Below the pieces are notes generated by a model. That model saw only the letters and a program-made list of their open reading frames with translations. It was not told the origin of the DNA and did no database searches. DNA of 61,622 bases, counting the filler, from Candidatus Woesearchaeota archaeon (GTDB lineage: Archaea > Nanobdellota > Nanobdellia > Woesearchaeales > CAZJJJ01): the NCBI GenBank assembly GCA_046538795.1. It is 4 parts of 4 records of this genome, joined end to end, with 100 filler letters (N's around TTAATTAATTAA, not from the genome) between each part and the next. Parts side by side here need not be neighbours in the genome. Positions count along the whole stretch, not along the records: positions 25,539 to 50,411 come from JBKHIF010000015.1; 3 more parts are not named here. One strand, 5' to 3'. Shown piece after piece: positions 14,416 through 50,349 of the stretch. How positions within the stretch are numbered: position 1 is the first letter of the stretch; each line of letters opens with the position of its first letter. The position numbers and the translations under genes were made by a program.

Positions 14416-14428
14416 ATCGATATAAAAA

Positions 14429-16465: not shown

Positions 16466-16475
16466 TCTTAAATAA

Positions 16476-16580
16476 TTATTGAAAATTTCTTTTCGTTTTT
16501 GTGGGTTAAATACCTCGTCCTTTGCCCTGCAAGGGTACTCTTCGAGCAGGTCGGGGAATAGCCATCGGTTTGAGTTATTT
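16476..16580 (+). repeat. Dispersed structured repeat, copy A (short)
   Basis: Begins TTATTGAAAATTT; 16521-16580 matches 34171-34230 at 59/60 nt. Confidence 0.85.
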
Positions 16581-16643
16581 CTGTTATTCCGAATTACCAA
16601 AAAACAGTAACATTTATATAGTAACTTATAGATAATTTTTTAT

Positions 16644-18749: not shown

Positions 18750-19513
18750 TGGTTTCAAAAAAAACTCTTATTTTCATTCTTATGCTGTTAGTTGTTTCAA
18801 CTATTCCTGTCGATGCAGCTGAACCTGTACAGAGAAGGACGGCAAAGATGCTGCTTCAAAGCCTTGATAATTATGTGGTGACTGTTGATATGAAAAATGA
18901 AAAAGAGGTCACAGTATCGCAGAGCTTTGATATTGTAAGCAGGCATAAGGATCCGATCATCCCCGGCAGAGCAAAACTTGTATTATATAATGGGATCAAT
19001 CCACAGAATATTCGTGCAAACATTGGTGGAAGCTACAGGGATATATCTCCTGATGAAGTTATTCTGGAAGACGGCAACAATGTAATCTATTATGAGATCT
19101 GGAGGCCTATAGCACCAGGTGAAAGGCTTAATATTGATGTAACTTTCGATACAGAGGTAGATGCCAAAGGATTTCTGTTCAAGCAGTTGGATTTAAAATT
19201 TGGAGAGCCTGAGCTTCCAATCGATAAAATGGTATTCACTTTAAACCTGCCAAGGGGAAAGAGAATAACTTATTCAGATCCTGGATTGACTGAAAGATCA
19301 GCAAATAGCGGAACCATAGAATTTGAAAGTCCGGGAGAAGATAATCAGGCATCTTTGACAGTTGAATATTCCTCGCTTCCATTGCCTGTTCTTCCTTTCC
19401 ATGGTTACTGGCTTTGGCTTCTTTTGGTGCTTGCGTCTCTTGTATTGTTTCTTGTAAGATATGTCAATAAAGACAAGTTTGAGCTTCCATCAACACCATT
19501 TTCAGGAAACTAA
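18746..19513 (+). CDS. Accessory secreted, membrane-anchored protein A (paralog of 22786-23508)
   Basis: Signal peptide; IIPG, WRPIAPG, KGFLF and VEYSSLPLP motifs mirrored in 22786-23508; C-terminal TM; start overlaps the paralog 3 stop. Confidence 0.8.
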   Translation: MMVSKKTLIFILMLLVVSTIPVDAAEPVQRRTAKMLLQSLDNYVVTVDMKNEKEVTVSQSFDIVSRHKDPIIPGRAKLVLYNGINPQNIRANIGGSYRDISPDEVILEDGNNVIYYEIWRPIAPGERLNIDVTFDTEVDAKGFLFKQLDLKFGEPELPIDKMVFTLNLPRGKRITYSDPGLTERSANSGTIEFESPGEDNQASLTVEYSSLPLPVLPFHGYWLWLLLVLASLVLFLVRYVNKDKFELPSTPFSGN

Positions 19514-19681
19514 ATACTATGAAGAAAAATGCAGAATAAGTTTTTTTATTTCTTTTTTTCAATGTCTTTTTTTATCTTCTCGAACTGATCAAGTATGTTT
19601 TCAAAAACAGTTGAGAGTATCTTTATGTTTTCGTCAATCTTGCTTATCTTGTTATCAATCTTTTCTATCTTTTCGTTGTAT

Positions 19682-20464
19682 TCATTCAAGTCCATATTTA
19701 CCATCTGTATTTGCCTTAAGCCAATTATCTGCTGATTCTACAAAGACCTCAATCTTTGTCGTAAGCCTGCTGACATTTTCTGACGCAGAATCAATTTTTT
19801 TTTCAAGCTCAGCCAACCTTTTTGCGTCTTTACTTTTTATCTTTATTTTTTTTATCTTTTTGCTTTTTTTATCTTTATGTGCTTTTTTGTCTTCTTTTTT
19901 TATTATTGCTCTTTCTTTTATCCTGCGTGTGGTTCTTTTTATGTCAGGAAGTATAAATAAAACAATTAGTGTTGAAACTATTATTATAAGTCCGTATATT
20001 GTTGTAAGTATAAATTCCTTTTTTTGATATATCGGAACATTGCTTTTGATTGTATCGTTTGCACTTTCAGATGCACTTTCGGTATTTTCCTCTGTATTTG
20101 AATATTTGATGAGCATCCGTTCTTTTGAAGGTTCATTATTTATGTATGGTTGTATTATTATATTCCCATCTTCTGTTTCAGGAAGATTATCTGGAAAATT
20201 AACAGATATCCTTATGCTTTTTTTTTCTCCTTCTGAAAGCATGAACTTATCGGGATTTACTTTTGCAAATGATTCTGAACTTTTTATCTCAAAATTCCTA
20301 AGTCCATCTTCCTCACTTGTCAGAAGCAATATAAATTGATAATTTTTTGAAGGCTGCATGTTCTTTATCTTGAGTTCAGACGGAGATAAAGAAAGTGCCC
20401 AGGCTGTTTGTGAGATTATGATTGTTAAAAATAGCAATGCCGCGATATTTTTTTTTTTCATCAT
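19682..20464 (-). CDS. Membrane protein: signal peptide, Ig-like domain, TM, basic coiled-coil tail
   Basis: LSLSPSEL..VNPDKFML beta module; TM ILTTIYGLIIIVSTLIVLFIL; heptad-rich C-terminus. Confidence 0.75.
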   Translation of the reverse strand: MMKKKNIAALLFLTIIISQTAWALSLSPSELKIKNMQPSKNYQFILLLTSEEDGLRNFEIKSSESFAKVNPDKFMLSEGEKKSIRISVNFPDNLPETEDGNIIIQPYINNEPSKERMLIKYSNTEENTESASESANDTIKSNVPIYQKKEFILTTIYGLIIIVSTLIVLFILPDIKRTTRRIKERAIIKKEDKKAHKDKKSKKIKKIKIKSKDAKRLAELEKKIDSASENVSRLTTKIEVFVESADNWLKANTDGKYGLE

Positions 20465-20646
20465 ACTAATATCTGAAGATTCTTCTATTTATAGTTTTTC
20501 TTTACTGACAATTATTTTCTTTTTTCGAAAGACGAGATTTCCGAACGAGGGAAAATAAATCAAAACATTTAAATACTAGTTATTTCATGAAATAATTATA
20601 ATGTTTTATTTTGGTGATAGTGTAATCTGAGGGCGAGGGAGTGTTT

Positions 20647-22746
20647 ATGCAAAAAAGACTAGTAATATCCACATTCATCATGTTTGTTTTTCTGGCAATG
20701 ATTTCTTTTGTTTCTGCTGACAATGTGACTTACGTCAATGTTTCTATTGAAGAAAAAGCTTTTCAGAATGTAACCTTTGCAAGAGATTTTTGGCTTGAAG
20801 AAAATGTTACCAATAAAATAGTTCATGGATATGTAAATGTTTCGAATCCAAGTCAGGAAACAGTAAGTGATATTCTTATATATCTCGATAATATGACAAA
20901 CCTTGCTACAAATTTTTCACATATGAGTGGACGCATGGGTAATCAACTTATAGTAACTGATGATACAGATGATGATGTCGTCTATTCAAATCTTAATATT
21001 ACTCCTATGCCCCTTACAGGCATAGATCTTGACCACGATAACAGAACTGATTATATGTTTTTATATAATGAGACTCATATAGCTTTTGATCTGAGTACTG
21101 AATATGATTATATATTCATTGATTCAGGAGTGGATATGTTTTCTGGTGAGGGTATCTTTTCAAACATAGAAGATACAATAACAATGAACGATGGTACTGA
21201 TGTTGGTTATTTTTTCTCAGATCAGCAGACAACTGATGTTATTGGCGGTCTTTTTGACTCTGTGACAATCACAGAATATACGCATGATTTTGTGACTTTG
21301 CACATACGTGAATTGCTGCCTGGTGAATATTCACTGTTTAATTATACTGCAACATCAGATGTTGACCCGCCTATAGATGTTGACACAAATTATACTCACG
21401 AACAGTACAGAAAAGTCCTTGCAGGAGAATGTTTCAATGTGACACAATGGGCGACAAATAACTTTGCATATGAGTTTAACATGACTGATGTTAATATTAC
21501 TATAGATGCTCTTGGTGTCACATGGAATGATACTGTCTTTAATTTCACTCTTTTTGAGCTAATGCCTAGCGGAGATTACGGCAATGTCACAAAAGCTCCG
21601 GGAGAAAATGAAAACAAGACTTGGTATTGGATTGTTAATAATGGCACGATGGAGTGGGGTGAAACCTATAATATTTCATATAGTGTGTGTGCCCCTGCAA
21701 GCGTTCCTTATTCAGACAGTTATGCTTTCATAAAAGAAAGCCTGCAATATCAGACTGATGGTACAATTTCAGGTATTGCTGTTACGCAAGTCTTGTCTGT
21801 TGCAAATACAGAATACAATTTCACTAAACGTATCGACAAGCCATCAGATACATTGAACAATACTGTTGTAACTTGGGAAGTTATTCCTAAGATAACGACT
21901 GTTAAAAATATCACATACAATGTAACAAAGATGAGTTTCTGGATAACAGAAGATCTTAATCCAAATAACAGGACGACTCTTGTTAACAGGACAGATCTTA
22001 ATATGATATATTTTCCAAACACTGTCATTAATGAAACCAGGACTTGGACCGGATCAGAATGGTTTTTTAACTATACAGATGGTTCATCGCTTGACAGTCC
22101 GCCTCCTATCATCTGGATGTATCCTTATTTCAAGATTGCTGATGTTGATGATCAGTTGACTGATTATTATCTTACTAAATCAGGAGAGGATCTCTACTGG
22201 AAATATATTTATGTTGTGAACGGCTACTGGCTGGAAATTGAGAAAAACGTAACTAATGTAGGTGAAGATAGCTACAATATTACTGTTGATGTTGTTAACA
22301 GAGGAAATGGTTATACACCAAGTGGTCTTACTGTAACTGTATATGACTTTGTCCCTGGTGAATTTGAAGCATATGGATTTAATCCAGCTGCAAGCGCTCA
22401 AAGAAGAGTCTACGGAGTATTCAATGGTACTGCATATAGATGGGACATTCCTCCGGAAAGAACAACTCAAAATGCTTCATTTGCACCAAGAGGAGAGATC
22501 AACAGCACCTGGAATACAACTTATATTGCTAATGGTACTGGTGATTACAGGATATCTGAATTATTCATTGTAGGTTTGGATCCACGGCTTGTTGATGGCG
22601 GCTCTGCTCACGAAGCGATCTCTGTTGTAAGTTCAATGGCTACTCACACAACAGAGATGGTTTATGTTGTAATTGTACTTTTCCTTGTAGGACTTAACAT
22701 AACAAACTTCATGATTTCAAGGAAAAAGGAGAAGGGCAATAAATAA
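20647..22746 (+). CDS. Surface protein paralog 4 (divergent, ~699 aa)
   Basis: VHGYVNVSN, LHIRELLPGE, KYIYVVNGYWLEIEK, VYDFVP and FIVGLDPRLVDGG align to paralog 1-3 motifs; C-terminal TM. Confidence 0.8.
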   Translation: MQKRLVISTFIMFVFLAMISFVSADNVTYVNVSIEEKAFQNVTFARDFWLEENVTNKIVHGYVNVSNPSQETVSDILIYLDNMTNLATNFSHMSGRMGNQLIVTDDTDDDVVYSNLNITPMPLTGIDLDHDNRTDYMFLYNETHIAFDLSTEYDYIFIDSGVDMFSGEGIFSNIEDTITMNDGTDVGYFFSDQQTTDVIGGLFDSVTITEYTHDFVTLHIRELLPGEYSLFNYTATSDVDPPIDVDTNYTHEQYRKVLAGECFNVTQWATNNFAYEFNMTDVNITIDALGVTWNDTVFNFTLFELMPSGDYGNVTKAPGENENKTWYWIVNNGTMEWGETYNISYSVCAPASVPYSDSYAFIKESLQYQTDGTISGIAVTQVLSVANTEYNFTKRIDKPSDTLNNTVVTWEVIPKITTVKNITYNVTKMSFWITEDLNPNNRTTLVNRTDLNMIYFPNTVINETRTWTGSEWFFNYTDGSSLDSPPPIIWMYPYFKIADVDDQLTDYYLTKSGEDLYWKYIYVVNGYWLEIEKNVTNVGEDSYNITVDVVNRGNGYTPSGLTVTVYDFVPGEFEAYGFNPAASAQRRVYGVFNGTAYRWDIPPERTTQNASFAPRGEINSTWNTTYIANGTGDYRISELFIVGLDPRLVDGGSAHEAISVVSSMATHTTEMVYVVIVLFLVGLNITNFMISRKKEKGNK

Positions 22747-22785
22747 ATGAAAACTTTTTTAACTAATTTTTTATTACTATTTTGA

Positions 22786-23508
22786 GTGATAGTTGTGAGG
22801 CTGAAAACATATTTAAGCGGTTTTTTATTCTTTTTCCTAATTAGTTCTCTGTTTAGTTCTGCTGTTTTTGCAGAAGTTGTTGTATTCAAAGAATATGACA
22901 CAAAAAATATTCTTGATGATGGCAAAATAAAAGTTGAAAAAAATATTATGATTGGGAATGATGGCAGAAACACTATAATCCCTGGAGAGCTTCATTTCAA
23001 GATATATGAATTCAATGGAAAAAAACAAGTACCTTCTGAGATAGAGAATCTCAATGCTCATAACAATTATAATTCTCTGACTGCACAGGTCGTCAAATCA
23101 CAGGATTATTCTGACATAATCGTTGATGTCTGGAATCCACTTATGCCTGATTTTGAAATTCCTATTACAATAACCTATGATCTTCTTTATAATCAAAAAG
23201 GTGTTCTCTTTCATGAATTAAATTTTCCTGTTGAAGAAACTACAGTTCCAATAGCATCTTCCACTTTAAAATTATTTCTTCCTAAAAATTTCTATGTGAC
23301 ATATGCTCCTGAGGCAGATATCACTACAGATGATATGTATAAGATAATAGAATGGAATTCTGATGAGACTGATCTTGTTGTTGAATATACCAGAATTCCT
23401 CTTCCTAAAATGGCTTTTAGATTATCGACAATGTTTTGGATTCTTGTGATAACCATACTTATAGGTATTACTATATTCTATCAGTTTTTTTACAAGAAGA
23501 AAAAATAA
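22786..23508 (+). CDS. Accessory secreted, membrane-anchored protein B
   Basis: IIPG, WNPLMPD, KGVLF, VEYTRIPLP; C-terminal TM plus KKKK. Confidence 0.8.
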   Translation: MIVVRLKTYLSGFLFFFLISSLFSSAVFAEVVVFKEYDTKNILDDGKIKVEKNIMIGNDGRNTIIPGELHFKIYEFNGKKQVPSEIENLNAHNNYNSLTAQVVKSQDYSDIIVDVWNPLMPDFEIPITITYDLLYNQKGVLFHELNFPVEETTVPIASSTLKLFLPKNFYVTYAPEADITTDDMYKIIEWNSDETDLVVEYTRIPLPKMAFRLSTMFWILVITILIGITIFYQFFYKKKK

Positions 23509-25538: not shown

Positions 25539-26192
25539 TTGGTGGACAGTTTGGCTGGGGTGGCACCCTGCTGAAAAGATATCAGCAGGGCCCTATGGTC
25601 AGCTCAACCGGGTCAGAAATCCGGTGTAGAGTGCAAGAGCAAAAGCTGGCCTGATTGGATTCCCCACAATAAGGTATCCAAACACTAACGTGTGGTCTAG
25701 CGAACTTCTGTGTCCTCCTAGATGGGGGCCAGAAACGACCGAAAAGTTACTCCGGGGATAACAGAGTTGTCGCGCCCGAGAGCTCCTATCGACGGCGCGG
25801 CTTGCTACATCGATGTCGGCTCTTCCTATCCTGGACGTGCAGAAGCGTCCAAGGGTGGGGGTGTTCACCCATTAAAAGGGATCGTGAGCTGGGTTCAGAA
25901 CGTTGTGAGACAGTTTGTTTGATATCTACTGGAATTGTTTGATATCTGAAGGGAAAGGGCTTCTAGTACGAGAGGAACGAAGGCCTGGTGCCACTGGTGA
26001 TCTGTTGTCTGACAAGGCAGGCAGAGCAGCTACGCACCAAGAGATAAGTGCTGAAAGCATCTAAGCACGAAACTTACCTTGAAAATAGATATCATAGGAC
26101 ACTTCTAAAAGAGAAGTTTGATGGGACTGGTGTGTAAGTACCAAGCTTACGCGAGGTATTCAGCGCGCAGTTTCCAACCGTCCGTTTCTCCT
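25539..26192 (+). rRNA. rrl: 23S rRNA, 3' fragment (domains V-VI)
   Basis: CAGTTTGGCTGGGG P-loop region, GGGATAACAG, TCGATGTCGGCTC, GAGCTGGGTTCAGAACG, sarcin-ricin loop CTAGTACGAGAGGAAC; followed by a T-tract. The 3' end is approximate. Confidence 0.96.
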
Positions 26193-36959: not shown

Positions 36960-39900
36960 ATGATGATATTTGTGCGAAAGACTATTTTCCTTGTGTTTGT
37001 ATTTATTTTATTATTTTTAGCTTTCTCAGATGCGGCTTACTCATCCTGCGAGACTGGAAGCGATACATCTATAACACAATATGGCATAACCTGGACATTT
37101 GATTCTGAATACCAGTGCGGACAGTTTGTCAATGGTGATTTCTGGGTGCTTGGTCCTGTTACAATAGTAAATATTGATCCTTCGAGCGGAGACGATGGAA
37201 CCGGAAGGATAGTTAACGGCTCGATGATAGATCCAGAGGCATCGACAAATTATCAGGGGTTTGACAGCGATGCATGGGATTATGATGGATCGCTTAATGT
37301 TGCTTTAGATATCTCTTCTTCTTCGCCTTTAATCATCCAGCCTGTATCAAGCTTGGTTTCATCAATATCATTGTTTCCTCCAGAAAGCAAGAAATCTATT
37401 GATTATCAGGCAATACTTACTGTTGTTTCTTCAATTCCTGATGCTGAGTCATTCAGGCCTCCCTGGACAGAAACAGACAAGACCATGCCTTATACATATT
37501 CAGATATAAACACCAACTTTCTGAGAAATCTTGCCCCTGTTGATAATCAACCATCCTGGGAAGATATCCAAGAAAGCATACTACCTCCTTTCATAGGCTT
37601 TTCATATTCATATTGGGTGGGTCAAAACGCTGCCAGGTTTGGTTCTGTAGGATTATCTGATTATGGAAGAGAGATTTCAGCAGACATGGGGGCTGCTGCT
37701 CTTATGATAAATACAGATGCTCCTCTTTCAGAAAAAAAGATGACTATTGCGGCTCTTGTCCAGAGAGGGATAGATGAATATGCTCTTTATCGTGCGTCAA
37801 GAATTGAAAACGACAGAATTTTTATGTGGTATAATGATGGCGGCATAAAACAGGGAAGAAAGCTTCCGATACTTCTTGCAGGTGTGCTTTTGAATGATGC
37901 TGATATGAGTAATATTGGCTTTGTAGAAGAACCTTTCCATGACGACGCGCAGACATTTTATGTAACCCAGGAATCAATAGACATTACAAACAGTGATTCC
38001 TGGGATCCTGATACAAGAGCTTATACACAGCCTTATGATGCTTCCATGATTGGCATGCCTGAATGGGGCATAAGGCATTCTACAAGACCAGAAGCAGATA
38101 ATGCTGACTGGACTGCTATGTACAGGCAGTGCTGCAATGCAATAACAAATGAGGCAACTGCCTTAGTGCTTCTTGTGATGGGGCTTAAGGAACTTTGGAA
38201 TGATGATTCTTATTTTGATTATCAGCACAGATATATGGAGATTGAACAGGGAAGACCTGATCCTTTTGGGTTTGAGGTGAACAACCAGCCTGCATCTCCT
38301 GGCTGGACTGCTGGTTCATACGGTCCATTTGGTTGGTGGAGAACAGCTATGTACTGGGAATATTGGGATGATTATTACTCGATGGATTCCTGGTATGATA
38401 AATTCCAAGATCAGAACGAAACAGATGATCCTTCGTGTATAGAATCCTGGTCTTGTACAGAATGGAGCGATTGTACAGTCGGAATGATCACAAGAACCTG
38501 CATAGATGAAAATGATTGCGGAACCGAAATTGAAAAACCGGTTGAAGAAGATTATTGTTTTGAAGGTTATGATTTTTATGATACTTTCACTGGTTCTTCA
38601 GTTGATTCAAGCAAATGGCGGGTTGCTACCTGGACTGAACACGGAGGACGCACAGGAACAGAGAGAGCATATGTTGAAGATGATGTTATTAATCTTATTT
38701 TTGAATATGATCTGAACTATTATGCTGATACAGGAAATTATCTTAGTTCAGCCATCCAATCAGTAAGGGAAGATTTTCTATATGGCAGATGGGAAGCAAG
38801 GCTTAAGCCTTCCAATCTCTCAGGTGTGCTGAATTCCATGTTCACTATTGATTGGCGTGATAATGGAGGCATGACCCTGCAGGAGATTGATATTGAATTT
38901 TTAACCCAATCTTTTGGAGGCGGGAATGGAGAGGTTCACATCGCACTTCATGCAAGGGATTATCCTAGTTTCCAGTCAAATCCAGACATAGAGTTGGGTT
39001 TTGATCCTTCAGAAGAGTTTCATGTATGGGGTTTTGACATAACTCCTGAATATATTGAGTGGTTTGTAGATGATACAATACTTTACACATATTATTATCA
39101 AGAAAATGATATTACAGTAGATGCGCCTTATATGATGAAATTTAATTCATGGAGCTCAGAACATTGGGTGGGCGGTCCGCCAGAACCTGATACAGAAAGC
39201 ATATATCAAATTGACTGGGTAAGGTTTAAGCAATATGAAAATGAATGCGCTGTCGCAGATGACTGTCCTTTTGTAGAATGCAGTGATCCATCCCAGACAA
39301 CCTGTGATGGCGGCAACTGTGTCTATGTTCCTTATGCTGACGGCACAACGTGCACTGATGACGGACTTTTTTGCAATGGAAACGAGACTTGTCAGTCAGG
39401 TTCCTGCACATCATCAGGAAATCCTTGTACTGCAGATACCATATCATGTACAAGAACATGTGATGAATCAACAGACACCTGCAATGTTCCGGATGATTCA
39501 CTTTGCACTTTGTCTTCAGGATGCACAAGCGCTTCATGCGATACTCAATTCGGATGCATATATGTTCCTGATGGATGCAATGACGTTTCAGGGATGATCT
39601 CACGCTGGGAATTTGAGACAGATGCATCTGACTCTTATGGAAACAATGATGGTTCTATGATTTCCGGAGCAACGATTACTACAGACCACGAACAGGGAAA
39701 TGTTTTGCATCTGGATGGTTCATCTCATGTAGATATCCCTTATTCCAACAGCCTTGATATAACCGCCCAGATAACAATATCTCTTTGGGTAAATGTGCAG
39801 TCATCAGGAAGCTATCCTAAGCTTTTTGTAAAGCAATATCAGGATCCATCTTCAGATCCGTGGGAACTTTATGCTATCGATCTTGGAAGTGATGGCAGGA

Positions 39901-40334
39901 CACCCAGATTTATGATTACAGATGGAGTTCCTTCAGGTCACTCAGTTTATCTTAACGGCGGGGTTATTCCGCTTGATGAGTGGCATCATCTGCTGGGAAC
40001 ATATGATGGTTCAAACGCATCTTTGTATGTTGACGGCATTTTGGCAGATAGTGAGCTTGCCTCATTTTCCATAGGATCAAACAATATGCCAATTGTCATG
40101 GGTGCAAATAATTTTGAGGGCCATATTGATGATGTGAGGTTATTTAACAGGGCTTTGACACAACAGGAGATAAGCTCTCTTGCAGGAACAGCTTATATCC
40201 ATCCTGCTGACATAAACTCAAACAGAATAATGGAATTCACAGAACTCAATTCCTATGTGCAGCAGTGGAAGACTTCTCCGTTAATATCGCTTGCACAGCT
40301 TGTGGAAGCCATTGAATTGTGGAAGGGCGGCTGA
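36960..40334 (+). CDS. Secreted multidomain protein with GH16 domain, Cys-rich repeats and LamG domain
   Basis: Signal peptide; YGRWEARLK and QEIDIEF (GH16 ExDxE), FHVWGFD; DDGLFCNGNETC; WHHLLGTYDG..LYVDG..IDDVRLFNRALT (LamG); dockerin/EF-hand-like tail HPADINSN. Confidence 0.85.
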   Translation: MMIFVRKTIFLVFVFILLFLAFSDAAYSSCETGSDTSITQYGITWTFDSEYQCGQFVNGDFWVLGPVTIVNIDPSSGDDGTGRIVNGSMIDPEASTNYQGFDSDAWDYDGSLNVALDISSSSPLIIQPVSSLVSSISLFPPESKKSIDYQAILTVVSSIPDAESFRPPWTETDKTMPYTYSDINTNFLRNLAPVDNQPSWEDIQESILPPFIGFSYSYWVGQNAARFGSVGLSDYGREISADMGAAALMINTDAPLSEKKMTIAALVQRGIDEYALYRASRIENDRIFMWYNDGGIKQGRKLPILLAGVLLNDADMSNIGFVEEPFHDDAQTFYVTQESIDITNSDSWDPDTRAYTQPYDASMIGMPEWGIRHSTRPEADNADWTAMYRQCCNAITNEATALVLLVMGLKELWNDDSYFDYQHRYMEIEQGRPDPFGFEVNNQPASPGWTAGSYGPFGWWRTAMYWEYWDDYYSMDSWYDKFQDQNETDDPSCIESWSCTEWSDCTVGMITRTCIDENDCGTEIEKPVEEDYCFEGYDFYDTFTGSSVDSSKWRVATWTEHGGRTGTERAYVEDDVINLIFEYDLNYYADTGNYLSSAIQSVREDFLYGRWEARLKPSNLSGVLNSMFTIDWRDNGGMTLQEIDIEFLTQSFGGGNGEVHIALHARDYPSFQSNPDIELGFDPSEEFHVWGFDITPEYIEWFVDDTILYTYYYQENDITVDAPYMMKFNSWSSEHWVGGPPEPDTESIYQIDWVRFKQYENECAVADDCPFVECSDPSQTTCDGGNCVYVPYADGTTCTDDGLFCNGNETCQSGSCTSSGNPCTADTISCTRTCDESTDTCNVPDDSLCTLSSGCTSASCDTQFGCIYVPDGCNDVSGMISRWEFETDASDSYGNNDGSMISGATITTDHEQGNVLHLDGSSHVDIPYSNSLDITAQITISLWVNVQSSGSYPKLFVKQYQDPSSDPWELYAIDLGSDGRTPRFMITDGVPSGHSVYLNGGVIPLDEWHHLLGTYDGSNASLYVDGILADSELASFSIGSNNMPIVMGANNFEGHIDDVRLFNRALTQQEISSLAGTAYIHPADINSNRIMEFTELNSYVQQWKTSPLISLAQLVEAIELWKGG

Positions 40335-41997: not shown

Positions 41998-42235
41998 TTA
42001 TTGAAAATTTCGCAAGAAACACGATTGAAACTTTGTTTCAATGTGCACAGAAATTTAAAAAATTTCTTTTCGTTTTTGAGGGATTGGCCCTGAAAGGGTC
42101 CTCCTTTGGAGCAATACCCGTCATTCATGGCGAAATTTTCAATCCCTCAAACCGAAGGCAAAATGCACCAAAGGTATACCCTTGTAGGGCACCCCATCCT
42201 TCAGGTCGGGGAATAGCCATCGGTTTGAGTTATTT
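41998..42235 (+). repeat. Dispersed structured repeat, copy C (longest)
   Basis: Same termini as copies A and B; several perfect hairpins; fills the whole gap between two convergent stop codons. Confidence 0.85.
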
Positions 42236-43209
42236 CAAATTTTTAGGTTTAATACCCTTGGGTAGTGATTTTCTTCATTTTCTAATATTTCTTTTGGATC
42301 ATTGATATTCTTTCCTTTCACAGGAATGAATTCATCCCAGCCAAAGTGTTCAGGATATTCTTTCCAAGGACCTTCACAGATGTTAAAATATTTGCAATCT
42401 TTGCATTTTTCATGCTTTACTTTTGCACCTTTCATCTTTTCAGCTTTAAAATCCTTAATTACCCTGTTTCTTTCTTCAATCCTTGTTGGAGGTATGTAGA
42501 ATTCAGAAACATGTTTTTCATATCCCTCCATGAAACAAAATGGGACTGCTTCTACCATGACAAATATCCCATGCGAGTTTGCTATATCAATGCCTTTTTT
42601 AAGATAAGGCACAGCGAGGCTCTTATAAGGCATCATACTTTCTATGTTTGTAAGGGCGTTTCCCATGGCGTGAACAAACGCGAACTGGAACTGATCTACT
42701 CCAAGACCGCACAAAAGCTTTGCAAGCTGAGGCGCATACCTGTAATTAGGCTTTACGATAACAGAATTCATGACAATATACTGACCCATATTTTTCAGGT
42801 TTTTTATTCCCTGGACAGTCTGCTCAAAAGCTCCTGAAGACGATGTAAGAAAATCATGTATCTCCTTTTTGTATCCATGAAGTGCAGGAGAAAACTCATT
42901 TGCGCCTGCTTTTATTATCTTTTTGCAAAAATCCTTATTTGAAAACATTCGTCCGTTGCTTTGAATCTGTATTGTGCTGAATCCAAGTTTTTTTGCAAAA
43001 CTTACAAGGCTTAATGCATCTTTTCTTAAGGTGAATTCTCCCCCTGTAAAAACAACACCTGAACAATTATCTTTTTTTGCATTAACAAGAGATTCTTTAA
43101 TCTCATCATAGTCCTTGTTGGCGTATTTTTTATTATGCGCCTGTACGCAGAATTTGCAGTTGCAGTTGCAAAGATATCCTGTCTTAATATCTACTCTTTT
43201 AAATGACAT
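42235..43209 (-). CDS. Radical SAM protein, HxsC-like, with C-terminal Cys cluster
   Basis: CNCNCKFC, FTGGEF, QSNGR, VPFC and C-terminal CKDCKYFNICEG. Confidence 0.88.
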   Translation of the reverse strand: MSFKRVDIKTGYLCNCNCKFCVQAHNKKYANKDYDEIKESLVNAKKDNCSGVVFTGGEFTLRKDALSLVSFAKKLGFSTIQIQSNGRMFSNKDFCKKIIKAGANEFSPALHGYKKEIHDFLTSSSGAFEQTVQGIKNLKNMGQYIVMNSVIVKPNYRYAPQLAKLLCGLGVDQFQFAFVHAMGNALTNIESMMPYKSLAVPYLKKGIDIANSHGIFVMVEAVPFCFMEGYEKHVSEFYIPPTRIEERNRVIKDFKAEKMKGAKVKHEKCKDCKYFNICEGPWKEYPEHFGWDEFIPVKGKNINDPKEILENEENHYPRVLNLKI

Positions 43210-43219
43210 TTTAGCATGA

Positions 43220-44821
43220 TCAGTCTGTCGCAATTTCAGTTATCCTTATGGTTGCATCTTCTTCTTCTTCTTTTGCGCCTTTTGTGGATGTTTCATTTTC
43301 TTTAAAAGGCGTTGTTATAGGATTATTTTCATAGATTCCCATAACTCCCCGCTTGTAGAAAGGCCATTTGTACATGTGTTTTTTTGCTTCAGGATCATGC
43401 AGAATCTTTTCAAAGATAAATTCGAACATTCCTTTATGTATCTTGCACCTGTAGTTTGCAGGGATATTGGTTATGAATCCCTTTTCTGTATTGTATATCT
43501 CAAGAGGGCATATTCCACAGTATGTGAACCAGGGACACTCATCGCATGTTGCAGTCAGATTAGATACAGACTGAAGGGTCTTTGTTACAGGGCAGTTGAG
43601 AAGATCCTTGTATTCAGAGGTGAATACATCTCCTACCTTGAATTCAGGCATTGTCCTTCCTTCATCACACGTATAGATGCTTCCATCATAGTCATAGACT
43701 ACCTGTCCGATGACTGCTCCGCATGGTATCTGAAGTTCAGCATATCCTGCATCAAGATTCCTTATAAGCTTGAAAAGTATCATGGATGCAATATTTTCGC
43801 TGACTTCTATTCCTTTCTTGTTGAGTTCAATCATGTAATTTATGGTCTTTTTCCATTTATCAAGATATTCTTCTGGAGAATAAGACATCTGTTCCCATGC
43901 CTTTGATGCAAATCCGAATCTTGAGATGTACTTGAATCTCACTGAATTAAAACCCTGCTTGACATATTCATCCACAATATCTTTCCATAAGTTTAATGAA
44001 TCGTTTACTATGACTGGTATAGCATTCACGCTGGGATATTTGTGTTTCTTTAGCATATCTAGAGTCTTTATGACAGATTCATAAGTTCCTTTGCCTGTTT
44101 CAGTATATTTCCTGTTTTTGTCATGGAGGTCCTTAGGTCCGTCAAGAGAAAGACACAATCCAACCTTATGTTCCTCGAGGAATTCAAGCATATCTTCTTT
44201 TAGGTATATTCCGTTTGTAACTATTGAAAAAAGGGTTGTCTTGTTATTTTCTTTCCCCATCTTTTCAGCTTTTAAGATTGCTTTTTTCACAAGATCCCAT
44301 TTGAGAAGTGGTTCTCCGCCTGTGAATTCTATTGAGTATGTCTTTGAAGGGCTTTTGAATATGAAATCAATGGTTTTTTCCATGACTTTTTCATCCATGT
44401 CAACATCTTTCTTATCAAGAGGAGCCCTAAAAGCATAGCAATATCTGCATGTGAAATTGCATCTTAAAGTAGGAACAATGATGTGCAGGCTTGTTCCGTT
44501 TGATATGTGCCAGTAATAATCATTGATCTGATGCGCAACCCTGTCCATGTTTGCATCTGTAATTATCATGAAACTTTCTTCAAGTTTTTTGAAAAGTTCT
44601 TCAGACATGTTTCCGAATAAGAAATCTTCATATTCTTTTTTGAAAAGAAACAGCCATTTTCCATAATCGTTGGTTAGAAGTACTCCGTCATCATATTTTC
44701 TTGTCCTTAACTTGACAGTTCTGAAATCTTCTCCTTCTTTGAACCCAGCTGTATTTTCTTGATTAATATCAGGAGAAGATATTTTTTTACTGTCTTTAGG
44801 ATTGAAATCAGGAATAGTCAT
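43220..44821 (-). CDS. hxsB: His-Xaa-Ser system radical SAM/SPASM maturase, HxsB-like
   Basis: SLHIIVPTLRCNFTCRYC, IEFTGGEPLL, SLDGPKDLHDKNR, PCGAVIGQVVYDYDGSIYTCDEG, CDECPWFTYCGICP. Confidence 0.85.
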   Translation of the reverse strand: MTIPDFNPKDSKKISSPDINQENTAGFKEGEDFRTVKLRTRKYDDGVLLTNDYGKWLFLFKKEYEDFLFGNMSEELFKKLEESFMIITDANMDRVAHQINDYYWHISNGTSLHIIVPTLRCNFTCRYCYAFRAPLDKKDVDMDEKVMEKTIDFIFKSPSKTYSIEFTGGEPLLKWDLVKKAILKAEKMGKENNKTTLFSIVTNGIYLKEDMLEFLEEHKVGLCLSLDGPKDLHDKNRKYTETGKGTYESVIKTLDMLKKHKYPSVNAIPVIVNDSLNLWKDIVDEYVKQGFNSVRFKYISRFGFASKAWEQMSYSPEEYLDKWKKTINYMIELNKKGIEVSENIASMILFKLIRNLDAGYAELQIPCGAVIGQVVYDYDGSIYTCDEGRTMPEFKVGDVFTSEYKDLLNCPVTKTLQSVSNLTATCDECPWFTYCGICPLEIYNTEKGFITNIPANYRCKIHKGMFEFIFEKILHDPEAKKHMYKWPFYKRGVMGIYENNPITTPFKENETSTKGAKEEEEDATIRITEIATD

Positions 44822-44909
44822 TATATTTTTGCCTCATTTATTTTCTTTTAATAATCTTATGTTGAACAGGGTTGAAAGAAAACAATAACAACTCTTTATG
44901 GTTTGAAAA

Positions 44910-45185
44910 TCATTCACATGCTTCTTCGTCTGTCATCTGGTTTTTTATCTTTCTTGTCATTATACCAAGAGTATAATTGAAAAATGAAAAAACAGCGTCT
45001 CTGACTTCATCAGAACTTTTTTTTGGCTCAATTCTTATGAAAAGAGAGTTTCCATCGTCAGCACCCTTTATGGCCACATAACAGCTTTCTGTGAACTCTT
45101 TTGCAGCTTCAATTATCGAAGGATAATCATAAAAATTGAAATCCATCTCAAATTCAGCAGAGTTCTTTTCAAACTTAATCTCCAT
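44910..45185 (-). CDS. HxsD-like small protein
   Basis: FYDYPSIIEAAKEFTE...FFNYTLG parallels the upstream HxsD-like gene; AAGGTGA RBS. Confidence 0.65.
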   Translation of the reverse strand: MEIKFEKNSAEFEMDFNFYDYPSIIEAAKEFTESCYVAIKGADDGNSLFIRIEPKKSSDEVRDAVFSFFNYTLGIMTRKIKNQMTDEEACE

Positions 45186-45729
45186 GGATTTCACCTTCTT
45201 TCTTATCTCCGTATTTTTCTTCCCAGGGAATAGCTATTCCTTCAGGATCATCGAATTCAAAATCGTCATCAAGTTCTTCATCGTCTTTGTTTATCGTGGC
45301 ATCAATCTCTTCGTCATCTTCAAAATCATCTGTATCAAAAACGTCTTCATCTTCTTCAGAAATGTCTGTTTCCTTTTGGATGTTTTTGGATGAATCTGCT
45401 TCAGTATCATAAAGATTTATGTTGTCGAATGATTTTTTCAGAAGAAGCGCCCTTAGAATCTCTTTTTTCTTTGAATTTATCTTGTAGTAAGTATAGTTTA
45501 CAAGCTGGTTCATAAAATTTTTTGCAAGAAGAGAAAGAGCTTCTTTATCATTTTTTGATTTATCCTTGTAGGATATATTTACAGTGATCTCAATTTCAGG
45601 ATCACCTTCAAAATATATGTATGAATCCTCCATAGTCTGATATGCTGCAGAATATATTGCCTCAAGATCATAAAGTCTTGGGTTTAACTCTATTACAGCA
45701 AAATCATCTTTGATCTTAAAAAATTCCAT
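45175..45729 (-). CDS. hxsD: His-Xaa-Ser system protein, HxsD-like, with acidic tail
   Basis: LNPRLYDLEAIYSAAY...NFMNQLVNY...ILRALL; Asp/Glu-rich tail ending DDPEGIAIPWEEKYG; first gene of the operon. Confidence 0.7.
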   Translation of the reverse strand: MEFFKIKDDFAVIELNPRLYDLEAIYSAAYQTMEDSYIYFEGDPEIEITVNISYKDKSKNDKEALSLLAKNFMNQLVNYTYYKINSKKKEILRALLLKKSFDNINLYDTEADSSKNIQKETDISEEDEDVFDTDDFEDDEEIDATINKDDEELDDDFEFDDPEGIAIPWEEKYGDKKEGEIHGD

Positions 45730-45872
45730 GAAATTCCCCTCCTGAACAATTGGATGCGATAATTGATTTCCTGCATTACAGGATAATAATCATCTTGGCT
45801 TTTTCTTTGCAAAGCTTAATTTTCAGGATATTGGAAACCTTTATAATTTTTTCCATTACTCCAATTTTTATT

Positions 45873-47024
45873 ATGTATGAGATTCTATTCTGGATAGGCA
45901 TACTTTTTGTTGGAGGCATAACATCCTTTACAGACATAAAATATGGCAAGATAAGAAACAAGGTGCTTCTTATCGGTATTTTGTATGCTGTGGCAATAAA
46001 TCTGATTATTTTCTTTAGCTTGGAATCTCTTAATCCCCGGGCTTATCTGCACTATTTCACAAATTCTGCCTTCATGCTTTTTTTAGGTTTTCTCCTATGG
46101 ATAGTTGGTCTTTGGACTGCTGGTGATGCCAAACTCTTTTTTGTACTTAATCTCCTTACGCCGCCTTCTATGATAACGAATTATTACCTTGGGTTGTTCT
46201 ATGGTTTTGTTTTTTTCATAAACATATTTGGCGTGATATTCTTATTTGCATTATATCGCATAATAAGGACTGTAAGCAAAAATGAACTTGTTTACAGCTT
46301 AAAAAAAACACTTGTGCCAAGAAACATACTTATGATTTCTCTATTCATTTTTTCTTTCAGCTATATTATACAATTTTTCCCTGATTTTTTTCGCCAGAAT
46401 TTTTTCATCGTGGTCATCTTGTTTTTTATCCTTTATTCTCTTTTTGAGATGATATTCGGCAAAAGGCTTATTTTGTTTATTGTTATATTATCTCTTGCAA
46501 GGCTCATAATAGATTTCAGGAATATTTTTTCTTTGGGTTTCCTTATTAATTTTGTTCTTCAGATTTTAGCCTTATTATTTCTCAGGTTTGTTTTGCTTAG
46601 GCTTAGCTATTTTGCATTCACAAAAAAAGTCAGGATAGATGACCTGAGAAAGGGAATGTTTCTTGCAGAAGACATATTTCCTGTAAATTTCATAGAGCAT
46701 GATGAGGAAAGGAGAAAACAGTATGATATTGATGATAAATCAGTTCTAAGATATGACAAACAAATGATAGAAAATCTTACTTTTATTTCTTATCTTCAGA
46801 ACAAGGATTTCAGGTCTTTTGAATATGATAAGAATCTGGGCTTAAGTGAAGACAACCTAATGTGGTTCAGGAATAATAAGAAAAACCTGCTTTTCAAGAG
46901 CATAAGAATATATGAGACTATGCCTTTTGCTCCGATAATTATGGTTGGCGTGATAATTACTTTGCTAATTAAAGGAAACATTTTTACAGGTTTGGCCGGA
47001 ATCATAAGAAATCTTTTTAACTAG
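45873..47024 (+). CDS. A24-family (prepilin/prearchaellin-type) aspartic peptidase
   Basis: SFTDIKYGKIRN (Asp1), LWTAGDAKLF (GxGD-type Asp2), many TMs, IDDLRKGMFLAE, C-terminal MPFAPII. Confidence 0.88.
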   Translation: MYEILFWIGILFVGGITSFTDIKYGKIRNKVLLIGILYAVAINLIIFFSLESLNPRAYLHYFTNSAFMLFLGFLLWIVGLWTAGDAKLFFVLNLLTPPSMITNYYLGLFYGFVFFINIFGVIFLFALYRIIRTVSKNELVYSLKKTLVPRNILMISLFIFSFSYIIQFFPDFFRQNFFIVVILFFILYSLFEMIFGKRLILFIVILSLARLIIDFRNIFSLGFLINFVLQILALLFLRFVLLRLSYFAFTKKVRIDDLRKGMFLAEDIFPVNFIEHDEERRKQYDIDDKSVLRYDKQMIENLTFISYLQNKDFRSFEYDKNLGLSEDNLMWFRNNKKNLLFKSIRIYETMPFAPIIMVGVIITLLIKGNIFTGLAGIIRNLFN

Positions 47025-47118
47025 AACGAGTATCGCGTTATTTGTTTCAGAGAGGGTTCCTTTATGGATAATCTTTGAGCCATTCAGAAGAATGGTCTTC
47101 TGAACTATTGATAATAGT

Positions 47119-48051
47119 ATGCTTAATGTCAACCAGATGATCACTATGAATGATGGATATGTATTAATCACAAGAGACTGCAACAATGACTGTCTGTTCT
47201 GTTCAGTTCCTAAGAGAGAAGAATATCTTTCAAAAGATGATATTTTTACAAGGATTGAGAATCTTATAAAAACAGGACACACCCAGATAACCATATCAGG
47301 AGGAGAACCTATCCTTCATAAGAATCTTTATGAGATTGTTAGTTTCATAAGATCAAAAGGTCTCACAGCAAGGGTTATAACAAACGGAACCCTTCTTGAC
47401 AAGAAAATAATTAATAAACTGGTGATGTCAGGACTTAACGACATAGTATTCTCAATTCACAGTCTTGATCCATCGTTATCTAAGACGATTTCTGCAAATG
47501 ACGAATATGATATTTCAAAGGTTCTGGCTTCGCTTAGATATGCTTTATCAATATCCTCTTTAGGGGTATGCTGGAACACTACTATAACAGGATTGAACTA
47601 TAAAGAGCTTCCTTATATTGCAAAAACGATATCTTCTGAATTCAAAAATATTGGAGTTATAACTCTTAATTTTGTCGATCTGAGCGGCAATGCAGCAAAT
47701 AAAAAAAATAATGATGTCAACATAACTTATGATCTTGCAGAGGTTTATCTATACAAAGCGATGCAGATATTAAAAAAAAATAATATTATTTTTAGGGCAG
47801 AGAGAATTCCTTTATGTTATCTTGTTGGGTTTGAAGATTATTCCTCTGATTACAACAGATTTTCCGGAAAAGAAAGCCTTAACACAGTTTTTACAGAAGG
47901 AAGAGTGGCAGAGACTCCGGGAAGTGATTATGTTAAGGCTTCCTGCTGCAAAGCCTGTTATAATAATAATATCTGCTTTGGTGTTCATCCCAGATATGCA
48001 AAAAACAATGGAACTGGTTCTCTTTATCCGATTTTTCATAAGAAAAAATAA
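47119..48051 (+). CDS. Radical SAM protein, HxsC-like
   Basis: CNNDCLFC, ISGGEP, TNG, IPLC and C-terminal CKACYNNNICFG. Confidence 0.88.
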   Translation: MLNVNQMITMNDGYVLITRDCNNDCLFCSVPKREEYLSKDDIFTRIENLIKTGHTQITISGGEPILHKNLYEIVSFIRSKGLTARVITNGTLLDKKIINKLVMSGLNDIVFSIHSLDPSLSKTISANDEYDISKVLASLRYALSISSLGVCWNTTITGLNYKELPYIAKTISSEFKNIGVITLNFVDLSGNAANKKNNDVNITYDLAEVYLYKAMQILKKNNIIFRAERIPLCYLVGFEDYSSDYNRFSGKESLNTVFTEGRVAETPGSDYVKASCCKACYNNNICFGVHPRYAKNNGTGSLYPIFHKKK

Positions 48052-48053
48052 GA

Positions 48054-49790
48054 TCATCTCTTCTTGCTGAATAATTTAAGGTGCATATCATAGAAACCAG
48101 CGCATCTGTTTTTGTAGGTGCAATTTTCGCATTCTTTTATTCTTTCCTTGTGAAGAGTATCGTATATAAATTTTACATATTCATAAAAATTCAGCTGATC
48201 TTGTGCCTTAATCCCTTTTATGTTGATAGTATCAAGGAACCAGTCAGTTTCAAAATGATTATTTTTTATAAATTCATCAGAGAATATGCAGTAAGGAAAA
48301 TTCCTCATGGTATAAGAGATTTTCAGATCCTTGCAGAGACTTGTGGCTCTTTCCAGATACTTAGGCAAATAATCATAGTTTGAAGCGATATTGAAATTGT
48401 CTTTTATTGACATGCCCTTATGCCAGCTTATTTCTCTTTGGGCAAAATCATAGGGATTAAGAGCAGAGAAAGAGAATCTTTTTATTCCTTTATCATAATA
48501 TTTTTTTATGATATGCACCAGGTTTGGGAGTGTGCTTTTTGTAATTAGTATATTTATCCTTGTTTGTTCGCAAATTGTTTTTGGTATATCTATTTGATTT
48601 TCTATCTTCTTGATGATGTTGTTTTTTTTGATAATATTTGGCATATCAAATTCAAATATTGTTTTTTTGTAAACCTCAGGAAACTTAAAGTTATCTTTTG
48701 GATTTTTGATTATTGTTCCTGCTTCTGGAAAATATGATCTGATCAATTTGAGGCCATTTTTATCAGTTTTTCCATTTATTATTATTTCTTTTATGTATTT
48801 TATTTCATTAAGAATTCTTATGTTTTTTTCATTTATATTTTCGTTTGGAATTATTATCCTTATTCCGTTTTCGATGTTATTTTCTGACGCTTTTTTAAAT
48901 ATGCTTTTCAAAGCCTTGCAAGTTGATTCCAGTCTGCAATATTCGCACTTTATGCCTTCGCATGCAGGGGGCATTGAAAACATGTCATCGTTCATTGATA
49001 TTGACATCTCTACAAGTTTGGTTGTGTCTTGTTTGTATATCTCATATCCTTCCATGTATTTTATCGGGGCTCTTAATACCCAGCATACAAGCTTTTTTTT
49101 CCTGCAAATCTCAAGGGCTTTCTTAAGGTAGGGTTCAACATCACTGTATTTTGGCATGATATCATTGAAATTTACAATTGCATTTCCTGCAAGAGTCGGT
49201 CCCATCAGGTCTATATCTCCTGTAATATTCAGATCGTCTGTTATGAATTTTATCATTTCAGGAAGATACTTGTAATTTTGCTTAAAGATACCCACATCAA
49301 TACTTATCAGAATTTTATTTTTTTTCAGTATTTTTACAGCTTTTTTAAGCTGTTCAAAGCTTTTTGACTGAGTGAGATAATCATGGATTTTTTTGGTATG
49401 CCCATGGAAAGACAATGTGGCCTCTGTCAATCCTGCTTTTATGCAGGCGTTTGTGAATGACTCATTTGAAAACATCCTGCCGTTGGAAATTATCTGTACA
49501 TTTTTGACAGGTCTTATTTCATTTATTTTACAGAATCTTATTATTTTTATTATGTCTGGATGTATTGTTGGTTCTCCTCCTGAAAGGATTATCTTGTTGA
49601 CATTGCTTTTGAGTGCTTCTCTTATCTCATTTTTGATGGATTCAAAATTCTTGTGCTTTTCAGAAGGATGATGTCCCTGAAGACAGAAAAGGCAGTTGTT
49701 GTTGCATTTTAGTGTAATTGTTATGTGTGCGCGATCTGTCTTATGGCTGATTACAGTTGATCCTGTTTTTAGATCTTTTTCACTTTTCAT
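48054..49790 (-). CDS. Radical SAM protein with a second degenerate module
   Basis: CNNNCLFC, LSGGEPTIHP, SNGRMF; internal CEYCRLESTC; C-terminal NFPYC ... CENCTYKNRCAG. Confidence 0.88.
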   Translation of the reverse strand: MKSEKDLKTGSTVISHKTDRAHITITLKCNNNCLFCLQGHHPSEKHKNFESIKNEIREALKSNVNKIILSGGEPTIHPDIIKIIRFCKINEIRPVKNVQIISNGRMFSNESFTNACIKAGLTEATLSFHGHTKKIHDYLTQSKSFEQLKKAVKILKKNKILISIDVGIFKQNYKYLPEMIKFITDDLNITGDIDLMGPTLAGNAIVNFNDIMPKYSDVEPYLKKALEICRKKKLVCWVLRAPIKYMEGYEIYKQDTTKLVEMSISMNDDMFSMPPACEGIKCEYCRLESTCKALKSIFKKASENNIENGIRIIIPNENINEKNIRILNEIKYIKEIIINGKTDKNGLKLIRSYFPEAGTIIKNPKDNFKFPEVYKKTIFEFDMPNIIKKNNIIKKIENQIDIPKTICEQTRINILITKSTLPNLVHIIKKYYDKGIKRFSFSALNPYDFAQREISWHKGMSIKDNFNIASNYDYLPKYLERATSLCKDLKISYTMRNFPYCIFSDEFIKNNHFETDWFLDTINIKGIKAQDQLNFYEYVKFIYDTLHKERIKECENCTYKNRCAGFYDMHLKLFSKKR

Positions 49791-49887
49791 ACTTTTTCGG
49801 GATTGTTGCAGGATTTAAAAAATATTGTTTTGTAAGGATATTTTAAAAATCAAAAATTATATAAAGATAATCTATTAGTAAATATTT

Positions 49888-50349
49888 ATGTCAAGGAAGT
49901 TTCCTTTATTCAAGAAGAAGATTTCTGATTTTTTAAGTCAGGAAGATGGAAAGATTACAAAACAGAGTGCAGTAGCTTTGGGAGCGTTTATTGTTGGAAG
50001 TGTAGTTTCCTCTATAAAGGATGTATCTGGATATATGATTCATGCTAATAGCTTTGGTGAATATAATTATAATTCTGGTACTGGTGTAGTCTCCTTGAGC
50101 CATAGCCACCACTCAAGTCATAGTACTCACAGTACTCACGGCACTCACAGCACTCATGGTAGCCACAGCAGCCATGGCAGTCATAGCAGCCACGGCAGTC
50201 ATAGCAGCCACGGCAGTCATAGTAGTCATGGCAGTCACGGCACTCACAGCACTCATGGTAGCCACAGCAGCCATGGCAGTCATAGCAGCCACGGCAGTCA
50301 TAGTAGTCACGGCAGTCATAGCAGCCATAGTAGTCACGGCAGTTATTAG
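49888..50349 (+). CDS. His-Xaa-Ser repeat precursor peptide (HxsA-like) with pilin-like leader
   Basis: Leader ..ISDFLSQEDG-KITKQSAVALGAFIVGSVVS; 27 consecutive His-led tripeptides (HSH, then 26 H-[G/S]-[S/T]) before the terminal Tyr. Confidence 0.9.
   Translation: MSRKFPLFKKKISDFLSQEDGKITKQSAVALGAFIVGSVVSSIKDVSGYMIHANSFGEYNYNSGTGVVSLSHSHHSSHSTHSTHGTHSTHGSHSSHGSHSSHGSHSSHGSHSSHGSHGTHSTHGSHSSHGSHSSHGSHSSHGSHSSHSSHGSY
50101..50343 (+). repeat. 9-bp-period coding tandem repeat
   Basis: CAY-(A/G)GY-A(G/C)Y units; a 69-bp exact duplication at 50136-50204 and 50235-50303. Confidence 0.92.

Follow-up and report, generated by a model that had tools for sequence, protein, structure and literature searches.

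Composition of the Locus

The DNA analyzed here (the window; 61,622 nucleotides, four contigs of Candidatus Woesearchaeota archaeon assembly GCA_046538795.1 joined end to end) carries a His-Xaa-Ser (HXS) peptide-maturation locus on the contig that occupies positions 25539–50411. The locus is an HXS system made up of HxsB, three HxsC-like enzymes, two HxsD-like proteins, a precursor peptide, and an A24 protease with the fold of FlaK. Our preferred reading, to which we assign a probability of roughly 60%, is an HxsA3-type maturation system with a two-part leader and a dedicated A24 leader protease, in which the protease cuts the leader and the product is released, not polymerized.

HxsB, a radical S-adenosylmethionine (SAM)/SPASM maturase (43220–44821, minus strand), scores 414.6 bits with TIGR03978, above the cut-off of 370. 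With TIGR03977, the HxsC-like radical SAM enzymes score 104.9 bits (enzyme 1; 42235–43233, minus strand, probable start ATG 43209), 76.9 bits (enzyme 2; 47119–48051, plus strand), and 128.9 bits in two matching stretches (enzyme 3; 48054–49790, minus strand, 578 residues), all under its cut-off of 267.9. HxsC or HxsC4 is nevertheless the best family for two of the three, enzyme 1 reaching 155 bits with the HxsC4 model NF038332 (cut-off 500). Enzyme 2 scores 80.4 bits with an archaeal MoaA model, near its TIGR03977 value, and resembles the other two HxsC-like proteins in tblastn. HxsD-like protein 1, which has an acidic tail (45175–45729, minus strand), scores 37.3 bits with TIGR03976 (cut-off 50), and HxsD-like protein 2 (44910–45194, minus strand) scores 21.6 bits with NF038315 (cut-off 41) and 16.6 with TIGR03976. 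These scores lie below the cut-offs, but the two families are the only ones that either protein matches. The gene order recurs in relatives, where protein 1 also adjoins the A24 gene and protein 2 again lies between protein 1 and hxsB. PADLOC returned only generic viperin radical SAM matches. The initial annotation had drawn the cluster at 45873–50349; that range does contain cluster genes, but it is only a part, since 42235–45729 adds hxsB, both hxsD-like genes, and a further hxsC-like gene.

A contig assembled from run X1 covers 42207–48841 and supports the joining of the hxsB, hxsD, and A24 genes. Neighboring open reading frames (ORFs) include L21e, RpoF, histone-like, and LSm proteins, which we take to be archaeal in type.

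The Precursor and Its Leader

The precursor ORF (49888–50349, plus strand; 153 residues) starts exactly as the initial annotation had quoted it and reads as three parts. Residues 1–21 (49888–49950) form a basic amphipathic tag running to FLSQEDG, with the putative A24 cut after Gly21 (codon 49948–49950). Residues 22–48 (49951–50031) resemble a Sec signal with a KITKQ n-region, an h-region at residues 28–43, and a c-region that ends in V-S-G. The predicted mature peptide of 105 residues (50032–50349) is rich in His, Ser, and Gly (29 His and 39 Ser), lacks Arg and Lys, and ends in GSY. H-x-S repeats begin at residue 72 (50101); 21 H-x-S and six H-x-T triplets were counted, and Tandem Repeats Finder reported a 9/18-nucleotide array at 50116–50343. 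The number of repeats is uncertain, because the contig stops 62 bases past the gene and because only one run has listed pieces that cover the repeat region, which is fragmented in that assembly. The precursor scores 57.6 bits with NF038313 (HxsA4), above the cut-off of 55, and 33.9 bits with NF038309 (HxsA3), below the cut-off of 65, the latter match spanning residues 4–84. No peptidoglycan-binding domain was matched in Pfam (E ≤ 0.1), and a word-index search with residues 1–75 returned no homolog.

The FLxxExG motif on which the initial annotation rested is conserved across homologous precursors, as FLxxE[DE]G↓KI[ST]K. The consensus of 47 recovered precursors is P-K-[IL]-K-K-K-[IV]-x-x-F-L-x-x-E-[DE]-G↓K-I-[ST]-K-x-x-h-h-x-x-G; all 47 were picked by their likeness to the leader, with a filter that fixed the aromatic, acidic, and small positions. 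At positions free of that filter, counted from the putative cut, P−16 is present in 38, K−12 in 41, I+2 in 35, and K+4 in 42 of the 47. Across the 45 leaders of the phylum, E19 is invariant and F15 and G21 are at least 90% conserved, partly by selection. NF038309, an independent model from NCBI, matched 42 of the phylum's 401 genomes, always below the cut-off, and none of 14 control genomes. A profile of the leader matched 1,043 representatives (50%-identity clusters) at E ≤ 0.001. A strain variant in run X2 (one contig, depth 5.5) has 12 listed differences in the precursor ORF, none of them in codons 14–25. Across relatives, the helical moment of the leader is 1.52, compared with 0.99 for shuffled sequences. 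The likeness to Flp prepilins that had been proposed holds for the motif itself, FxxxExG, but not at the level of family: at E ≤ 1, the Flp and class III families of Pfam and NCBIfam gave no match to any of the 45 leaders.

A pattern scan of all contigs gave at least 120 matches. Flanks were obtained for 80; removal of three chance matches (L085, L100, and L132) left 77 loci, and L166, L171, and L189 were excluded among the short loci. The matches listed come from Woesearchaeota, Nanoarchaeota, Aenigmarchaeota, Iainarchaeum, Patescibacteria, Elusimicrobiota, Myxococcota, and Planctomycetota, and Woesearchaeota and Nanoarchaeota make up most of the named records among them, which suggests a DPANN-type host for the present locus. 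Some archaeal loci recur in both sets and several submitter labels look unreliable; L106 and L155, which have archaeal-type enzymes, may be misbinned.

In the alignment of precursors, many mature regions carry H-x-N, a short spacer, and t-H-x-H-H ahead of the HxS repeats and have Tyr or Trp as the last residue, a pattern that could represent a His-rich hairpin or a metal site. A second precursor in the same genome (contig C97, L001:9925–10188, minus strand; 87 residues) has the same leader with only two HxS triplets and no hxsB nearby. The housekeeping A24 gene is 2.1 kb away from it; this placement was not used as evidence. The same leader is also found on Cys/Gly-rich proteins without HxS (L047:13763–14533, minus strand, and L050 and L073), one of which has a Hint domain. 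Their genomes hold one to three cluster-type A24 copies and give no hxsB match, and the leader and protease may form a general export module. Reduced cassettes at L251:8439–10396 and L061:6062–10101 consist of an A24 gene, two HxsD-like genes, and a short precursor in a genome without an hxsB match. Six loci (L089, L114, L120, L133, L142, and L151; five labeled Elusimicrobiota and one "bacterium") have two tandem hxsB-like genes beside the precursor.

The A24 Peptidase

As the initial annotation had noted, an A24 peptidase gene with both catalytic aspartates lies among the maturase genes (45873–47024, plus strand). It encodes a membrane aspartic peptidase of 383 residues, with D21 (45933–45935) in SFTDIKYG and D85 (46125–46127) in WTAGDAKL. 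Among 26 homologous peptidases D21 is invariant and D85 is at least 90% conserved. The second motif is T-A-G-D, not the canonical G-x-G-D, and most of the clade has [ST]AGD. Family models recognize the protein poorly: the score with PF01478 is 23.8 bits (cut-off 26.5), PF06819 (Arc_PepC) is a weak match (E = 0.009), and no NCBIfam model matches. The fold was assigned from an AF2 model with a predicted local distance difference test score (pLDDT) of 86. Re-examination of 113 Foldseek chains placed FlaK (3S0X) first with Z = 13.0 (root-mean-square deviation 4.0 Å over 176 aligned residues), ahead of 4.9 for the next chain; Foldseek itself gave E = 0.14 and a probability of 0.97.

The genome has its own housekeeping A24 as well. 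In a tree, 28 cluster-type A24 proteins split from three housekeeping ones with support of 100/100, and the bacterial copies fall in the cluster-type clade. The peptidase is a dedicated partner, in a clade distinct from the housekeeping prepilin peptidase. A predicted complex of the peptidase with the leader scored 0.39, and the best control scored 0.00, which favors the pairing weakly. The mark required runs to agree in at least 85% of contacts with a partner pLDDT of at least 55; it was reached by 116 of 157 solved pairs and two of 215 mismatched pairs, and at scores of 0.60 or below by 18 of the 157 and by both of the mismatches.

One homolog, at L237:10061–11719 (minus strand), is a 553-residue A24 ORF that adjoins hxsB and a precursor and has a long additional C-terminal region.

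Co-occurrence of Leader and Peptidase

Among the 401 genomes, the leader was found in 45, the A24 profile in 49, and hxsB in 52. The linkage proposed from the single locus extends to its relatives, since homologous systems nearly always carry A24: it is present in 39 of the 45 leader genomes and in 10 of the other 356. hxsB and A24 coincide in 42 genomes, and in a less circular test, the leader is present in 40 of the 52 genomes that were selected through hxsB. In bacterial-labeled genomes, A24 was detected genome-wide in 35 of 36 that bear the leader and in none of 165 others from the phylum of genome G416, the one phylum that served as bacterial control.

Five of the six leader genomes that lack a strict A24 match have a diverged second A24, and the sixth (G070) has a partial match (E = 9e-6). 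The diverged gene is adjacent in G084 and G104. In G192, G351, and G378, which belong to one genus, it is unlinked and belongs to a shortened sister clade of the A24 enzymes (FastTree 0.983), and here the leader site has drifted to EDA↓KV. We had considered that the peptidase was lost where the site drifted; this was ruled out, as each of the three genomes has the diverged second A24 that is sister to the clade.

The exceptions with respect to hxsB were traced in the same way. Of seven A24 genomes without hxsB, four retain the leader (G073, G156, G181, and G256) and three have A24 at a contig end. Retention of A24 and leader without hxsB in four genomes indicates that the protease tracks the leader and not HxsB. 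Ten hxsB genomes lack a strict A24; three have the diverged gene in the locus (G010, G084, and G104), three have the unlinked sister enzyme (G192, G351, and G378), one (G291) has a weak hxsB match, and three (G040, G173, and G223) show neither leader nor cluster-type A24. Among the matches listed, A24 lies within the flank in 27 of 41 archaeal loci and in 18 of the 21 of these that span at least 12 kb. In 26 of 30 bacterial A24 loci, an HxsC-like or leader ORF lies within 1.5 kb of the A24 gene.

Processing of the Precursor

The initial annotation had envisaged a membrane-anchored or polymerizing pilin subunit as the product of cleavage. The residues that follow the putative cut do not support this: positions +1 and +4 are basic, the h-region is only moderately hydrophobic, and AxA motifs are enriched behind it. 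At least one Lys or Arg occurs within +1 to +5 in 192 of 193 profile-selected precursors. The +5 Glu of true pilins, whose absence had been noted from the start, is Gln in the window, and Lys, Glu, and Gln occupy this position in 45, 27, and 24 of the 108 unique listed relatives selected by pattern. The median of the best 19-residue hydropathy is 1.5, and the median uncharged run is 17.5 residues.

AxA is the rule for cleavage of the signal peptidase I type. An [AV]xA ending at +24 to +34 was found in 73 of the 108 pattern-selected precursors, compared with 29.8 ± 4.5 in 1,000 shuffles (maximum 47); the next window downstream has the motif in nine of the 108. The count on the pattern-selected set replaces an earlier one, 139 of 193, that was partly circular. 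The candidate second site in the window is V46-S47-G48↓Y49, where close relatives have VEA or VSA, and the genome encodes a signal peptidase I. TatC was not found in the genome, which is 97.6% complete, and the leader has no RR; a reading of KITKQ as a twin-arginine translocation (Tat)-like signal was rejected on these grounds. The suggestion that the peptidase takes the place of the usual exporters agrees with the surroundings of the clusters examined, beside which no ATP-binding cassette (ABC), C39, or double-Gly exporter recurs; the genes that recur there are housekeeping genes and genes for radical SAM enzymes, B12-binding ones included.

Nine pilin-like proteins of the genome, chosen for hydrophobicity, have K/R-G/A↓Q-[VI]-T and, behind it, a stretch without charged residues. 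The register of these sites, G↓x-[IV]-[ST], recurs at the HxsA site. This agrees with an origin from a pilin-type signal, and such an origin would explain the need for a second, retuned enzyme.

In the mechanism that we propose, the H-x-S repeats are modified by HxsB, the HxsC-like enzymes, and HxsD for as long as residues 1–21 hold the precursor in the cytoplasm. The A24 paralog, with a specificity that would have moved from the K/R-G↓Q of ordinary pilins to E-D/E-G↓K, would then cut between G21 and K22. Residues 22–48, now N-terminal, would work like any Sec signal, and the His/Ser peptide of about 105 residues would be freed outside the membrane by signal peptidase I. Cleavage by A24 after Gly21 is likely, judging from the conservation of the motif. 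We are less sure of the order of the cleavage and modification steps than of the A24 cut and release, and the same applies to the role of the released peptide, which is probably envelope defense, a reading drawn solely from analogy with E. coli HXS. The initial annotation was right to pair the leader with A24, probably right about the cut, and probably wrong in expecting a pilin.

Alternatives to Cleavage and Release

A number of observations weigh against A24 cleavage followed by release. The co-occurrence counts overstate independence because the genomes are related and because leader-anchored loci were the source of profiles A2 and A3. In the cluster peptidases, Thr or Ser takes the place of the first Gly of GxGD, Lys at +1 and +4 is unlike characterized A24 substrates, and the likeness to known A24-substrate geometry could contribute to the complex score of 0.39. 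Gly+11, conserved in 140 of 150, is a possible alternative A24 cut, and AxA also occurs inside the Ala-rich h-regions of 46 of the 108 relatives. EppA, a paralog dedicated to pilins, needs Gln at +1, as the available text of PMC4390842 describes it. The points that follow are of the same kind and lead to specific alternatives.

The peptidase could cut elsewhere or act on another substrate, and the conserved ExG site could equally be a binding motif for HxsD or HxsB. In its fullest form, this alternative holds that the whole 48-residue N terminus is one long signal or maturase-binding leader cut by signal peptidase I, with ExG as the HxsD/HxsB recognition element and A24 only clearing the leftover signal or trimming another cluster protein. 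The amphipathic helix formed by the leader suits such a role. In bacteria the A24 gene usually adjoins an HxsC-like gene and not the precursor; A24 is near the precursor in only eight of 36 bacterial-labeled loci (seven of the 22 that span at least 12 kb), among the matches listed. Cleavage of E. coli HxsA needs HxsB, HxsC, and HxsD and proceeds without a protease gene in the operon, according to the main text of Li et al. (2026; PMC13128918). We consider this alternative improbable on three counts: A24 and leader persist in the four genomes without hxsB, although HxsD-like genes persist in two of them; drift of the leader goes with divergence of A24 in one genus; and the Gly at −1 is nearly invariant, as A24 substrates need.

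Equally improbable, in our judgment, is that A24 cuts after Gly21 and the hydrophobic segment stays behind as an anchor, so that the modified repeats are displayed as monomers. Class III sugar-binding proteins are displayed on the surface in a comparable manner. The c-region of the window is V-S-G and not AxA, 35 of the 108 listed relatives lack a strict [AV]xA, and the G↓x-[IV]-[ST] register is that of the pilin-like G↓Q-[VI]-T sites of the genome, all of which suit an anchor. Class III processing leaves a hydrophobic domain of about 20 residues, as outlined in the available text of PMC4858521. Against retention stands the 2.4-fold excess of AxA over shuffles exactly behind the h-region, and the median run and hydropathy given above are weak for a stable anchor.

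Far less probable is a pilin that polymerizes into a His-repeat filament, for which the Flp-like FxxxExG register, two T2SSE-family ATPases on other contigs of the genome, and Glu or Gln at +5 in 51 of the 108 listed relatives can be cited, and against which stand K+1 and K+4, Glu at +5 in only 27, the 45 leaders without a Pfam Flp or class III match, the AxA behind the helix, the lack of a pilus ATPase or platform protein among the 45 most recurrent neighbor families within 8–10 kb (23 scanned with Pfam, the others by eye), and mature regions that differ widely in length, some being Cys-rich or bearing a Hint domain.

Relation to Known Systems

The locus is a real and widespread variant of the known HXS system with a repurposed prepilin-type protease. 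According to the main text of Li et al. (2026), E. coli HxsA is exported, processed at its N terminus in an HxsB/C/D-dependent manner, carries a modification of +8 Da, and blocks phage DNA entry, and 99.7% of HXS systems are found in Pseudomonadota. That main text names no protease and does not contain the terms archae, prepilin, pilin, A24, or peptidase; in the available text of PMC9062424, His-Xaa-Ser receives no more than a brief mention. The literature searched, which left most subscription papers out of reach, contained no report of an HXS variant linked to A24.

Like the Pseudomonadota systems, the present locus has, judged from its genes alone, an HxsB above the cut-off, HxsC-like and HxsD-like genes, and an H-x-S precursor that would be exported and processed at the N terminus. 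Unlike the E. coli system, the variant occurs in archaeal hosts and hosts of the Candidate Phyla Radiation type, with three HxsC-like and two HxsD-like proteins where E. coli has one of each. The precursor of the locus has 21 repeats and not five, lacks the peptidoglycan-binding domain, and comes with a two-part leader and a dedicated A24. The leader is already contained in the NCBIfam HxsA3 model (NF038309), which 44 of the 45 leaders match, a comparison made by model names; the difference is that none of the 401 genomes reaches its cut-off.

Prepilin peptidases are known to act on pilins, archaellins, and binding proteins. The cluster A24 shares with the class III signal peptidases EppA, FlaK, and PibD the fold, the two aspartates, and a weak Arc_PepC match, and it differs from them in its linkage to radical SAM peptide genes instead of pilus genes, its W[ST]AGD motif, and a putative site that is acidic before and basic after Gly. 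With EppA it also shares the longer multi-helix form and dedication to one substrate set (PMC4390842 and PMC4858521, available text). Flp/Tad prepilins likewise have a short basic leader ending in F-x-x-x-E-x-G; the HxsA leaders differ from them in the lack of a Pfam match, the unconserved +5 Glu, the charged +1 and +4 positions, and the AxA behind the helix, and no Tad genes were seen nearby.

If the preferred reading is true, the A24 family would gain a new task, in which a dedicated copy serves as leader protease for a peptide modified by radical SAM enzymes. The E. coli study leaves the N-terminal processing and export of HxsA unexplained, and for the variant a protease and two cut sites can be named. 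The variant also puts a relative of a phage-entry defense system into 45 of the 401 genomes sampled from a DPANN phylum, about one in nine. A bolder extension, which we offer tentatively and regard as doubtful, is that A24 serves as an export license. The tag would mask the Sec signal until the radical SAM enzymes have finished, and cutting at the pilin-derived site would unmask it, giving a hitherto undescribed, ABC-free route for secretion of a modified ribosomal peptide. DPANN archaea, Patescibacteria, Elusimicrobiota, and Myxococcota would have this route in common; it would be reused for Cys-rich and Hint cargo and would deliver an HXS-type entry-blocking effector in a lineage without peptidoglycan.

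Other Features of the Window and Genome

The left edge of the cluster (42000–42280) coincides with a short high-copy element, with a depth of 121–210 compared with 4–11 and many loose ends at 42202–42235; it may mark where a small mobile element ends. Three further HxsC-like radical SAM matches lie on contig C76 (L002:5658–8388) and may be the remainder of the same system, and contig C20 (L003) has several other radical SAM genes. Elsewhere in the window, tandem paralogous secreted proteins of about 690 residues with C-terminal anchors alternate with proteins of about 250 residues at 12349–23508; by appearance, they may be S-layer-like. A secreted protein of 1124 residues with GH16 and laminin G domains is encoded at 36960–40334.

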